Source: Escherichia coli (lineage in GTDB: Bacteria; Pseudomonadota; Gammaproteobacteria; Enterobacterales; Enterobacteriaceae). Taken from it: DNA of 64,000 bases. Made by a program: the position numbers and the translations under genes. Where the stretch lies: the NCBI RefSeq assembly GCF_003334385.1, contig NZ_QOWN01000018.1; one strand, given 5' to 3'. Below the pieces are notes generated by a model that was not told the DNA's origin, did no database searches, and saw only the letters and a program-made list of their open reading frames with translations. Positions 57,134-62,733 of the stretch are shown in pieces (position 1 is the first letter of the stretch; every line of letters starts with the position of its first letter).

Positions 57134-60100
57134 TTACTCAACAGGTTGCGGACGCGCAGGAGCGGCAGAGGCATGATGTGTTGCCGTATGACCACCTGCG
57201 GCACCTTTACCTTCGAAGGCAAAAGTAGGGCGCTGCCAGTCACTGTGACGCGGTGCCTCCGGAACATATTCCGGTGCTGGAGCGCGCGTCATTGGCGCGG
57301 TAGCGTGGTTATGCTCAACGGTGACCTCAGGTTCGACCGCAGCTACCGTTTCAACTTCTGCTGCGACTTCAGCGACTACTGGCGCGGCAGGTTGAGCAAC
57401 AACTTCAGGTTCAGCAACTACAACCTCAGCAGTTTCGACAACTTCTTCAATATCTGCCGTCTCTTCCTGCGGTTCAACCACCGGTTCTGCTTGTTCTGCA
57501 ACTTCCTGGGCTACGGCAACATCAGACTCGGTAATCACCTGCGGCTGTTCAGTTACCGCGGCAGCGATCACTTCAGGATGCGTCGTTTCAACCACTTCCG
57601 GTTGCGGTTCGGCAACCTGAACGGGGGCTTCTACGACACCGGCCACTTCTTCAACAACTGGCGCGCTAACAACCGGTTCGATAGCGGCGGCGACAGGGAC
57701 CTCAGTCACCATCGGCTGCACATGTACTTCTTCCTGTTCGCGCTGCTCTTCAACCTGTACATCTTGCGGACGTACAATTGGATAGCGGATCCAGACTTTG
57801 CCAGAGGCCAGTTCCGGAGACGCGCACGCTACGGTCAACGGCATTGGCGACTGGGTTGGATAACGCTCGTCACGATAGCGACGACGACGCTGACCACTTA
57901 CGCGCAGGTGACGAGGCGAGCGGCGAGAACGACGCGGCATGCCACCGTTGTCACGGTTATCAGCATTGTTCTCTTCTTGCTGTTCTGGTGCAGTTTGCGC
58001 TACGACTGGCAGCGGGACTTTCACCAGTTCTGTGCGTGGAGCTGGCGCTTCCTGAACAATTGGTTCGGCAGCGACAGTTTCTTCAACCACCGGTGCGACT
58101 ACCGCTTCTTCGGCTACGCTTTGCTCGTAACGCACTTTCTGATTGAGCTGACGCTGTTTACGACGCGGCTGAACCGGACGTACACGTTCTTCCTGTTCGG
58201 TTTCCTGAACAGATTGCTCTTCAACATTCAGCGCCTTCGCTTCTTGTTGCGCCTGACGTTTATCATCATTACGGCGGCGGCTACGTTCACGACGCGGCGC
58301 TTGCTGCTCGTCGGCGGTACGCGCTTTTTCCGTTACCTCAGCCTGCTGACGGCTCTCACGCGTCTCGGCAGTCTGCTGCTGTGCCTGGCGACGATTACGA
58401 CGGTTTTCTTCGCGATTATCGCTGCCTTCAGTACGTTCACTACGGGTGTCGCGGCGCTCATTACGGTCACGGCGGTTGTTCTGACGAGGCTTGCGACGAT
58501 CCTGTTGACGTTCCGGTTTCGCTTCTGCTTTCGGTGCTGGTTGCTCGGTCGGTTTGGTTTCTTCACCACCGCTGAACAGCGCTTTCAGTGCGCCGAAGAA
58601 GCGGCTCAACAGCCCAGGTTGTGCAGGAGCTGCTGGTGTTGCCGGTGCAGCTTTCGGTGCTGGAGCTACAACAGGCGCGGCAGGTTCAGCTGGCGTTGGC
58701 GCAGGCGGCACATCCGGCATGGCAAAGGTTGCCAGCGCAGGTTGTTCCGGACGCTTACGTTCAGCGAACTCTTCTTCAGACGGCAGCGCCATCGCTTCTT
58801 CATGCAGCTTCGGCAGCATGTAGCTTAAGGTTGGGGTTTCTTCCCCTTTACGCACGCGCAGCACGTGGTAGTGCGGGGTTTCCATCTGATCGTTTGGCAC
58901 AATTACACAGCGCACACCGTCCTGACGAGTTTCAATGGCATTTACCGCAGAACGTTTTTCATTCAGCAGGTAAGAAGCGATTGGCACAGGAACAATGGCG
59001 TGAACTTCCTGGGTGTTCTCTTTCAGCGCTTCTTCTTCGATCAGACGCAGAATAGAGAGCGACAGCGATTCGTTGTCACGCACGGTGCCAGTACCAGAAC
59101 AACGCGGACAAACGTGATGACTGGATTCACCCAGTGATGGGCTCAGGCGCTGACGGGACATTTCCAGCAGGCCAAAGCGAGAAATATGGCTGATTTGAAT
59201 ACGCGCACGGTCCTGACGCACCGCTTCACGCAGACGGTTTTCTACCGCACGCTGGTGGCGTACTGGCGTCATGTCGATGAAGTCGATAACAATCAGGCCG
59301 CCGAGGTCACGCAGGCGCAGCTGACGAGCAATCTCATCGGCAGCTTCGAGGTTAGTGTTAAACGCGGTTTCTTCGATATCGCCGCCGCGGGTCGCGCGTG
59401 CGGAGTTGATGTCGATGGCCGTTAACGCTTCGGTGCTGTCGATAACAATGGAACCACCAGACGGCAGACGAACTTCACGCTGGAAGGCGGACTCGATCTG
59501 TGACTCGATCTGGTAGTGGCTGAACAGCGGGATCTCGCCGGTGTACAGTTTGATTTTGCTGCTGAAATCCGGGCGACCTAATGCAGCGATATGCTGACGT
59601 GCCAGTTCGAGCACTTTCGGGTTATCGATAAGGATTTCGCCGATGTCCTGACGTAAGTAATCGCGGAATGCGCGAACGATTACGTTGCTCTCCTGATGAA
59701 TCAGGAACGGGGCCGGGCGGCTTTCAGCGGCTTTTTTGATGGCTTCCCAGTGTTTCAGACGGAAGCTTAAATCCCATTGCAGCGCCTCAGCAGATTTGCC
59801 GACGCCAGCGGTGCGCACGATAAGCCCCATGCCTTCCGGCAGTTCAAGGCTTGCCAGTGCTTCTTTTAATTCGGTACGGTCGTCGCCTTCGATACGGCGA
59901 GAAATGCCACCCGCGCGCGGGTTGTTCGGCATCAGAACCAGATAGCTACCCGCCAGACTGATAAAGGTGGTTAATGCCGCGCCTTTGTTGCCGCGCTCTT
60001 CTTTATCGATCTGAACAATGACTTCCTGACCTTCACGCAACACATCTTTAATGTTGGGACGACCATGAGCACTGTAGTTAGCAGGGAAATATTCGCGGGC

Positions 60101-60319
60101 AATTTCTTTTAGTGGGAGGAAACCGTGACGTTCAGCGCCGTAATCAACAAAAGCAGCTTCCAGACTCGGTTCAATGCGGGTGATTTTACCTTTGTAGATG
60201 TTTGCCTTTTTCTGCTCGTGCCCTGGACTTTCGATATCCAGGTCATACAGACGCTGCCCATCTACAAGGGCAACGCGCAACTCTTCCTGCTGAGTTGCGT
60301 TGATTAACATTCTTTTCAT
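57134..60319 (-). CDS. rne: ribonuclease E
   Basis: 1061 aa starting [30 protein letters not shown] (S1 + catalytic domain), Arg/Pro/Glu-rich C-terminal scaffold. Confidence 0.97.
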
Positions 60320-60680
60320 CGTAACTTACTCATTATTCTTACATTGACGACTAAGCTGCGGGCAAAGTAACGCCTTTCCGGGTGTGAACCGATGGCCTCG
60401 TGTCTAGTCGCGTCGCCAACCTCACGGTTATCGTCAGCTCAAAGAGGCGCAGAGTGTCGGTTGCCCGTTTTTCATGCGGAAAAACAGCGCAATTATCAAA
60501 GAAACAGACTGGGTATTACTCTCCAGAAATATTTCCATCTACCGGTAAGGACTGCAACCCGCAGCCCGCTAACTGCCTGAAAGATCAATACGTCTTACGC
60601 CATTGCTGCGTGGATGATCGGTCGGGCAAAATGGGTTATTCCGTAAAATTTCTTGTTTTAACAAGGATGGACACGGAAAC
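60320..60680 (-). promoter_or_regulatory. rne long 5' untranslated leader (autoregulatory structured region) and promoter-proximal sequence
   Basis: About 360 nt non-coding upstream of rne start; the rne leader is known to be long and structured; exact 5' end not determinable here. Confidence 0.6.
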
Positions 60681-60891
60681 GGCCTCATTATTCCACTGCA
60701 AGCCTTGTTATAGCAAGATGACTTTTACCATTTATCACCCGCTTACTCACAGTTTTTTCACTTCTTGCTGGTGATTGGTTTAATAACCATCAATAAAGTG
60801 ATCACGCAGTGAAGTAATAAGGTGCAAAAGTAAATATAAGCATAGAAAAATGAGTGGCGCGAATCCTGTTGGCTAATTAGAATCGCCAACC

Positions 60892-61851
60892 ATGAAAACA
60901 GAGACTCCATCCGTAAAAATTGTTGCTATCACCGCTGACGAAGCGGGGCAACGTATCGATAACTTTTTGCGTACCCAATTGAAAGGCGTACCAAAAAGTA
61001 TGATTTACCGTATTTTGCGTAAAGGCGAAGTGCGGGTGAACAAAAAACGTATTAAGCCTGAATATAAACTCGAAGCGGGTGATGAGGTGCGTATTCCACC
61101 GGTTCGCGTTGCTGAGCGGGAAGAAGAGGCGGTTTCGCCACATCTGCAAAAGGTGGCGGCGCTGGCGGACGTCATCTTATATGAAGATGATCACATCCTG
61201 GTGCTGAATAAACCTTCCGGTACGGCGGTACATGGCGGCAGTGGTTTAAGCTTCGGCGTTATTGAAGGTTTGCGGGCGTTGCGCCCGGAAGCGCGGTTCC
61301 TTGAACTGGTTCATCGTCTTGACCGGGACACCTCAGGTGTTTTGCTGGTAGCGAAAAAACGCTCGGCGTTGCGTTCTCTGCATGAGCAATTACGTGAAAA
61401 AGGGATGCAAAAAGATTACCTGGCGCTGGTGCGCGGTCAGTGGCAGTCGCATGTGAAGAGCGTTCAAGCACCGTTACTGAAAAATATTCTGCAAAGCGGC
61501 GAACGTATCGTGCGTGTGAGTCAGGAAGGCAAACCGTCGGAAACACGCTTTAAAGTGGAAGAACGCTATGCATTTGCCACCCTGGTGCGTTGTAGCCCGG
61601 TAACAGGGCGTACTCACCAGATCCGTGTGCATACACAATATGCGGGTCATCCGATTGCCTTTGACGATCGCTACGGTGACCGTGAATTTGACAGGCAGCT
61701 CACTGAAGCAGGCACGGGATTAAATCGCCTGTTCCTGCACGCTGCAGCGTTGAAGTTTACTCATCCGGGGACCGGTGAGGTGATGCGTATCGAAGCTCCG
61801 ATGGATGAAGGTTTGAAGCGTTGTTTGCAAAAGCTGCGTAACGCGCGCTAA
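60892..61851 (+). CDS. rluC: 23S rRNA pseudouridine synthase RluC
   Basis: 319 aa; S4-like N-terminal domain and RluA-family catalytic motif (HRLDRDTSGVLLVAK). Confidence 0.95.
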   Translation: MKTETPSVKIVAITADEAGQRIDNFLRTQLKGVPKSMIYRILRKGEVRVNKKRIKPEYKLEAGDEVRIPPVRVAEREEEAVSPHLQKVAALADVILYEDDHILVLNKPSGTAVHGGSGLSFGVIEGLRALRPEARFLELVHRLDRDTSGVLLVAKKRSALRSLHEQLREKGMQKDYLALVRGQWQSHVKSVQAPLLKNILQSGERIVRVSQEGKPSETRFKVEERYAFATLVRCSPVTGRTHQIRVHTQYAGHPIAFDDRYGDREFDRQLTEAGTGLNRLFLHAAALKFTHPGTGEVMRIEAPMDEGLKRCLQKLRNAR

Positions 61852-61962: not shown

Positions 61963-62547
61963 CTATCCCATCAGCGGGTTTTTCCCTTCCCGACGTAACA
62001 TCTGACACAGCGCGATTAGCGGTAAACCAACCAGCGTGTTAGGATCACGCCCCTCTAAACGCTCAAACAGCGTAATGCCAAATCCTTCACTCTTAAAGCT
62101 ACCCGCGCAGTGCAGGGGATGCTCTTTACGCACGTAATTATCAATCTCCGCCTCGCTCAGGTGACGGAAATGGACGTCAAAAGGCTCCACTTCTGTTTGC
62201 AGATGCCCATTCGCCGAATTAAACAACGCCAGTCCAGTATAGAAGGTGACGATATTGCCGCTGGCTTTGCGTAATTGCAGACGGGCATTTTCTTCCGTTA
62301 ACGGTTTACCGGTGATTTCGCCATCAAGAACACATACCTGGTCTGAACCAATAATTAAATGATCCGGATAACGTGACGCCAGAGATTGCGCTTTTTCTTG
62401 TGCCAGTCGAAGCACCAACTGTCGCGGTGATTCGTCGCTGCGTGGGGTTTCGTCGACCTCTGGTGCTGCACATTCAAAAGAGATTTGCAGTTTTTCCAGA
62501 AGAGCGCGACGCCATGGCGAGGTGGAGGCTAAAATAAGTTTAGGCAT
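61963..62547 (-). CDS. yceF: Maf-like nucleoside triphosphate pyrophosphatase YceF
   Basis: Start trimmed to [20 protein letters not shown] (194 aa). Confidence 0.92.
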
Positions 62548-62733
62548 ATTTTTTTCCATCAGATATAGCGTATTGATGATAGCCATTTTAAACTATGCGC
62601 TTCGTTTTGCAGGTTGATGTTTGTTATCAGCACTGAACGAAAATAAAGCAGTAACCCGCAATGTGTGCGAATTATTGGCAAAAGGCAACCACAGGCTGCC
62701 TTTTTCTTTGACTCTATGACGTTACAAAGTTAA

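Follow-up and report, generated by a model that had tools for sequence, protein, structure and literature searches.

The 572-nucleotide spacer between rne and rluC in Escherichia coli is, with high confidence, the autoregulatory leader and promoter of rne, the gene for RNase E, and the open reading frame annotated on the opposite strand as yceQ is an accidental antisense frame and not a gene. The leader and promoter with their spurious ORF are already known, published work having reached the same verdict. The DNA analysed here (the window, 64,000 nucleotides of one strand) holds the spacer near its right-hand end; the length of the spacer follows from the coordinates of the two flanking ORFs. 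The 801 nucleotides around the site are 100% identical to those of a K-12 MG1655 derivative. The same region was found in all 5,426 complete E. coli genomes searched, with 5,395 showing an identity of at least 99%. Window positions 60200-61000 give 5,440 matches in complete E. coli genomes, five of them to records with a plasmid label. The features of the region are collected in Table 1.

Table 1. Features of the rne-rluC region, in window coordinates
Feature	Position	Strand	Basis or remark
rne (RNase E, 1061 aa)	57134..60319	-	ORF list; annotated rne in E. coli genomes
rne 5' untranslated leader, 361 nt, from P1	60320..60680	-	promoter position; rne5 match begins at 60680
Rfam RF00040 rne5 element, full-length match	60344..60680	-	covariance model
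Unpaired leader 3' end with the presumed rne ribosome-binding region	60320..60352	-	GAG at 60329-60331
Multi-branched domain closed by an 11-bp stem (hp3-like)	60353..60567	-	consensus helices 5-11
Conserved stem-loop with internal loops (hp2-like, proposed RNase E sensor)	60573..60629	-	consensus helices 1-4
5'-terminal stem-loop (hp1-like)	60639..60678	-	first helix in both the rne5 consensus and the MFE fold
rne P1 promoter	60687..60716	-	-35 TTGCTA 60711-60716, 18-nt spacer with TG, -10 AATAAT 60687-60692
Double DnaA box TTATCACCC-gc-TTACTCACA	60732..60751	.	upstream of P1; exact single match in the window
124-codon ORF, GTG start	60400..60774	+	ORF list; judged accidental, non-coding
yceQ (b1085), 106 codons, GTG start, GAGG 6 nt upstream	60454..60774	+	K-12 NC_000913.3 annotation
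rluC -10 hexamer TAGAAT	60878..60883	+	right-hand boundary of the region; TA[G/A]AAT conserved in 12/12 species
rluC	60892..61851	+	ORF list

The original prediction took the roughly 360 non-coding nucleotides in front of rne for its long autoregulatory 5' untranslated region, and this is borne out by the length of the leader, by a full-length match to a known RNA family and by covariation across 12 Enterobacterales. The position of P1 places the transcription start at about 60680 and thus gives a leader of 361 nucleotides, ending at the rne ATG at 60319 on the minus strand. Directly upstream of rne and on the same strand, the Rfam rne5 model (RF00040; gathering threshold 180 bits) matches the window with 260.1 bits (E = 3e-82) over model positions 1-333 of 333, and the match begins at the first base of the leader. 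The window sequence does not differ from the family: it is its archetype. When rne loci taken from 80 gammaproteobacterial species were scanned with the same model, the element was found above threshold upstream of rne, at the same position and with 232-320 bits, in 11 other Enterobacterales (E. albertii, Citrobacter, two Enterobacter, Klebsiella, Superficieibacter, Acerihabitans, two Yersinia and two Photorhabdus). At the gathering threshold, the rne loci of Pasteurellaceae, Vibrio, Shewanella and Pseudomonas gave no match. The rne5 or RNase E 5' UTR element is reportedly the subject of work by Jain & Belasco in 1995, Diwa et al. in 2000 and Schuck et al. in 2009. Positions 60320-60680 of the minus strand are this well-known autoregulatory leader.

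A consensus fold built from 12 Enterobacterales leaders contains 62 base pairs. Read from the rne strand, 96.6% of the cells of these pairs in the alignment are paired; for the plus strand the figure falls to 88.7%. The better fit to the rne strand comes from 65 G·U cells, pairs that only this strand can form. Compensatory changes, with both sides of the pair altered, occur in 15 of the 62 pairs, and in only 0-5 in controls with the partners displaced by 1-3 columns. These controls reach covariation scores of 0.043-0.059, compared to 0.215 for the true pairing, and the observed values were reached by none of 500 shuffles. Taken together, the compensatory changes and the strand bias of the G·U pairs argue for selection on the RNA that is transcribed in the direction of rne. 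By single-sequence folding energy, the leader (z = -0.66) is not set apart from its antisense (z = -1.91); because this measure is uninformative, we rely on covariation and on the Rfam model.

We take the three structured domains of the leader to be those named hp1, hp2 and hp3, the name hp1 for the 5'-terminal stem-loop presumably going back to Diwa et al. in 2000. The hp2-like stem-loop, which Diwa and colleagues (2000) and Schuck and colleagues (2009) are said to regard as the sensor of RNase E, shows compensatory changes in 6 pairs around an invariant core, ACGCAGCAAUGGCGUAAGACGU. The helices of the hp3-like domain are 94-100% paired, with compensatory changes in 9 pairs. The 3' end of the leader is unpaired in the consensus and 92-99% identical across species, and the region of the GAG at 60329-60331 is probably the ribosome-binding site of rne.

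P1 is the sole sigma-70-like site returned by a promoter scan of positions 60200-61000. It is TG-extended and matches at 9 of 12 hexamer positions; among the 12 species there is little or no variation in either hexamer. On the plus strand of the same interval this simple scan returned no sigma-70-like promoter, and it also missed the promoter of rluC. The scan of 60200-61000 did not place the two upstream rne promoters either, p2 and p3, which Ow et al. reportedly described in 2002. That an rne promoter is located inside yceQ has been published before (bioRxiv 10.1101/038851; 10.1101/237842).

Just upstream of the P1 -35 hexamer lies the sequence TTATCACCCgcTTACTCACA, a pair of DnaA boxes separated by 2 nucleotides. 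Compared to the consensus TTATNCACA, the first box, TTATCACCC, matches at 6 of 9 positions and the second, TTACTCACA, at 8 of 9. Salmonella and C. amalonaticus have the pair at an unchanged offset and with 20 of 20 bases identical; in both, it lies downstream of the stop codon of their version of the ORF. As the boxes are kept where the ORF has already terminated, their conservation is independent of it. For DnaA binding we draw on the literature: the site listed as "(yceQ) rne" in a DnaA ChIP-seq study is this same sequence, with a low, 5-fold enrichment (PMC11317965). The arrangement resembles the DnaA-box pairs at the nrdA, dnaA, rpoH and polA promoters, with two close boxes in direct orientation that are bound in ChIP-seq. 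It differs from them in that the first rne box matches at just 6 of 9 positions, the ChIP signal is weak and the regulation of rne is putative.

On the other side of the spacer, rluC has a TA[G/A]AAT hexamer ending 8 nucleotides before its ATG in all 12 Enterobacterales, and no Shine-Dalgarno sequence was found upstream of the ATG (positions 60878-60892). A conserved -10-like hexamer so close to the start codon, together with the missing Shine-Dalgarno sequence, fits the listing of rluC among the known leaderless genes of E. coli (PMC8794815). An 8-codon upstream ORF before rluC (ATG at 60850) was considered and rejected, its ATG being missing in Enterobacter sp. BIGb0383, Acerihabitans and Yersinia. 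In the same stretch, the block AAGCAYAGAAAAAKGRGTGGCGC (60840-60859) is 89% identical over the 12 species, out to Yersinia, between flanks of 42-65% identity; it could be an UP element or the -35 part of the rluC promoter, or else be part of p2 and p3, the rne promoters further upstream. Further to the right, transfer of coordinates from K-12 puts the sraB small RNA gene between yceF and yceD, at about 62541-62709 on the plus strand, and Rfam SraB matches occur at the corresponding place in E. albertii and Citrobacter.

The plus-strand ORF of 124 codons is present precisely where it had been predicted, at 60400-60774. It had been described as overlapping the leader in antisense, which is true of most of it; the last 30 codons or so run beyond the leader, over P1 and the DnaA-box pair. 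Its equation with the K-12 gene yceQ was right apart from the length. Frame and stop are the same, and some relatives of the ORF also bear the name "DUF2655 domain-containing protein", but the K-12 gene starts 18 codons further in, at 60454, and counts 106 codons instead of 124. In NC_000913.3 it occupies record positions 1144502-1144822, with the product "DUF2655 domain-containing protein YceQ". The GAGG that precedes the GTG at 60454 is the complement of a conserved leader helix.

The length of the ORF is unusual for the spacer, since an ORF of at least 124 codons arises in 1.2% of 2000 shuffles of the 572 nucleotides that preserve dinucleotide composition. However, the 64-kb window contains 15 shadow ORFs of at least 124 amino acids, lying in the shadow of longer ORFs, so that length alone is no evidence of a gene. 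One of the 15, of 560 amino acids, runs antisense to the C-terminal half of rne (57146-58828, plus strand). It is almost certainly no more than a shadow of the coding sequence of rne, which is biased and repetitive, and it illustrates the lengths that spurious frames may reach in this DNA.

Database searches gave the ORF no family. There was no match to Pfam-A even at E <= 10, and none to NCBIfam at E <= 10. The name "DUF2655 domain-containing protein YceQ" persists in RefSeq, without a matching model in the Pfam-A library used. Among 5.8 billion protein clusters, 32 relatives of the ORF were found, of 68-156 amino acids and with coverages of 28-98%; all those with an organism name are from Enterobacteriaceae. 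PGAP leaves the place of the ORF unannotated in each of the 60 RefSeq E. coli genomes sampled.

The coding status of the ORF had been called doubtful from the start, and the comparison between species gives this doubt solid ground. In a 12-species Enterobacterales alignment read in the orientation of yceQ, only E. coli and E. albertii have an unbroken ORF; the rne5 RNA element is retained by every one of the 12. Nine of the ten remaining species have lost the frame to frameshifts, mostly with stop codons in addition. C. werkmanii, at 90% nucleotide identity, already carries two +1 insertions and in-frame stops; in eight further species there are indels of a length not divisible by three, joined in seven of the eight by stops in the E. 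coli frame. In the tenth, Enterobacter sp. Bisph1, the frame is open only by virtue of compensating +1 and -1 indels, and the peptide between them is altered.

Nor do the substitutions follow the codons. Variable columns at the first, second and third codon positions of the ORF number 15/10/11 in a set of 3 species, 51/35/43 in 7 and 79/75/75 in 12, with no excess at the third position in any of the three sets. The first 125 codons of rne, taken from the same genomes as a control, give 3/1/38, 9/2/88 and 16/4/103. Salmonella and C. amalonaticus have a version of the ORF of 82 codons, which ends at a stop equivalent to codon 101. Over the 82 codons shared by E. coli and Salmonella, dN/dS is 0.58 in the ORF frame, and 0.77 and 1.42 in the two other frames. 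Between the same two organisms, dS is 0.22 for the ORF, 0.82 for rne and 1.48 for rluC (4-7 times lower in the ORF), and dN is 0.128, 0.004 and 0.020, respectively (6-30 times higher in the ORF). Constraint at the so-called synonymous sites thus equals that at the remaining ones, and this argues for a constraint at the level of the nucleotide sequence and not of a protein.

The ratio is 0.75 in comparison with C. amalonaticus and 0.85 with E. albertii; of the four changes in the latter comparison, three are non-synonymous. Altogether, omega spans 0.58-0.85 for the ORF, 0.71-1.42 for out-of-frame controls and 0.005-0.013 for the neighbouring genes (0.005 for rne). One control, rluC against C. 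amalonaticus, was dropped as unreliable, its dN of 0.14 being inflated by an ungapped comparison. By our own arithmetic, the nominal departure of the ORF from 1 is not significant (chi-square about 2.0, p about 0.16). Conservation analysis by dN/dS had been proposed as a check on the ORF, and with values like those of the out-of-frame controls it speaks against coding.

What is conserved in the predicted protein coincides with other elements. The sole well-conserved peptide, amino acids 49-75 (60544-60624), is the antisense of the hp2-like stem-loop and of the base of hp3, and the conserved 11 C-terminal residues (60727-60759) cover the DnaA-box pair. In most relatives a stop codon stands at codon 101, inside the P1 spacer. 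It is absent in E. coli and E. albertii, and the ORF is thereby extended over P1 and the DnaA boxes.

Natural isolates of E. coli carry disruptions of the ORF. Three independent IS insertions were found in the rne-rluC spacer, and P1 and the leader are intact in all three. In strain Z22-2 an IS1 lies in the ORF with a 9-bp target duplication (60717-60725) immediately upstream of the P1 -35 hexamer, and it parts the DnaA boxes and all upstream sequence from P1. The O121 isolate 201805972 has an ISEc11 in the ORF at about 60755-60757. The third insertion, an IS1 at 60833-60841 in strain M217, is outside the ORF. In addition, strain 30EVA1 has seven Ts in place of six at 60753-60758, which shifts the frame of the ORF. 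Several truncated or frameshifted protein versions labelled "E. coli/Shigella" were not counted as natural disruptions, as they may be assembly errors.

The absence of translation is taken from the literature. Ribosome profiling had been proposed as the other check, and a publication has answered it: Price et al. (bioRxiv 10.1101/038851) saw no YceQ reads in three conditions. The same authors reported disrupted alleles of yceQ, with transposon insertions just in the orientation able to drive rne, and concluded that yceQ encodes no protein. Using TraDIS, Goodall et al. (10.1101/237842) also found yceQ to be non-coding and ascribed its "essential" call in Keio and PEC to the loss of the rne promoter. 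In the dCas9 CRISPRi screen of Rousset et al. (10.1101/308916), the strand effect at yceQ fits a block of rne transcription. During the Syn61 design, according to a summary in 10.1101/2025.03.09.641718, synonymous recoding of yceQ disturbed the regulation of the adjacent essential gene. Similar cases, in which an apparently essential gene stands for the control region of a neighbour that is essential, are yaaY, in the Syn61 recoding, and, in CRISPRi, psrO (upstream of pnp) and sroG (upstream of ribB). In all of them, as in yceQ, what is annotated lies over the neighbour's promoter or leader, and deleting, silencing or recoding it harms that neighbour. Unlike the three others, yceQ overlaps a 361-nucleotide autoregulatory leader, to which its ORF is antisense.

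Two other explanations would give the plus strand a function of its own. According to one, which we consider very improbable, yceQ is a real but young and lineage-restricted small protein, either born de novo in Escherichia or represented by the 82-amino-acid version common to Salmonella and some Citrobacter, and translated either weakly or only in conditions other than those profiled; its message would be a plus-strand RNA running antisense to the leader of rne. The frame is indeed longer than 98.8% of those in the shuffled spacers, it is intact in E. coli and E. albertii, its 82-amino-acid form is common to Salmonella and C. amalonaticus, and open frames recur in some lineages, as in Enterobacter sp. 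Bisph1 and in a protein cluster of 138 amino acids. However, it has no codon-position signature, and the frameshifted stretches in relatives encode unrelated peptides. The Shine-Dalgarno-like GAGG 6 nucleotides before the GTG at 60454 would favour translation, but its complement belongs to a conserved helix of the leader. The omega nominally below 1 is like that of the out-of-frame controls, with a dN 6-30 times that of the neighbouring genes. In addition, no plus-strand promoter was found in 60200-61000, no model in Pfam-A or NCBIfam matches, natural isolates carry IS insertions and a frameshift in the ORF, no ribosome footprints were seen in three conditions and transposon insertions are tolerated (bioRxiv 10.1101/038851; 10.1101/237842).

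The other explanation holds the ORF to be incidental and assumes a non-coding plus-strand RNA, antisense to the rne leader in the manner of an excludon, that would modulate rne by transcriptional interference or through cleavage of the duplex by RNase III. The pair rne-yceQ figures in a computed list of 16 divergent excludons of E. coli MG1655 (at least 50% of RNA-seq samples); as this list rests on RNA-seq coverage, some plus-strand signal may exist. Yet the pair is listed largely because the annotated yceQ sits inside the rne leader, and the list gives no plus-strand start. The scan of 60200-61000 found no sigma-70-like promoter on the plus strand, and rluC, leaderless and with its -10 hexamer right at the ATG, supplies no transcript from further upstream. 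The compensatory changes and G·U pairs indicate selection on the minus-strand RNA, and transposon insertions that drive rne are viable although they would cut any antisense RNA (bioRxiv 10.1101/038851; 10.1101/237842). We judge this explanation hardly more probable than that of a young protein. None of the points in favour of either, whether the length, the GAGG, the recurring frames or the excludon listing, outweighs the other evidence. There is a similarly slight chance that the ORF as extended in Escherichia, or a plus-strand RNA that includes it, is expressed under conditions other than those profiled. It would then act either as a micro-protein of very recent origin or as a brake, by antisense, on the leader of RNase E.

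The reading that we prefer is therefore that of an rne leader and promoter with an accidental ORF on the opposite strand. RNA polymerase starts at P1, at about 60680, just downstream of the pair of DnaA boxes, and makes the 361-nucleotide structured leader. The rest of the scheme is taken from the K-12 literature, which should apply here, the region being identical in sequence to that of K-12: RNase E is reported to bind a conserved stem-loop of the leader (here 60573-60629) and to speed the decay of its own mRNA. The level of RNase E would in this way feed back on RNase E synthesis. The yceQ frame is a by-product of this organization, one antisense frame of strongly constrained DNA that happens to be free of stops. 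As the sequence is so constrained, an accidental open frame will stay open, and the constraint on RNA and promoter keeps the yceQ "protein" partly conserved. In the Escherichia lineage, the absence of the stop at codon 101 lengthens the frame across the promoter and the DnaA boxes.

The analysis brings no new biology, and its use is first of all in the hygiene of annotation. In the K-12 reference yceQ is still entered as a protein, and it was listed as essential in Keio and PEC; genome-recoding projects have taken it for a gene, to their cost. Our results support removing yceQ, or re-labelling it as "rne leader / promoter". The locus is also a worked example of how a constrained RNA and a promoter can fake the conservation of a protein: the "conserved domain" DUF2655 is the antisense of hp2 and of the base of hp3, plus the DnaA-box pair.
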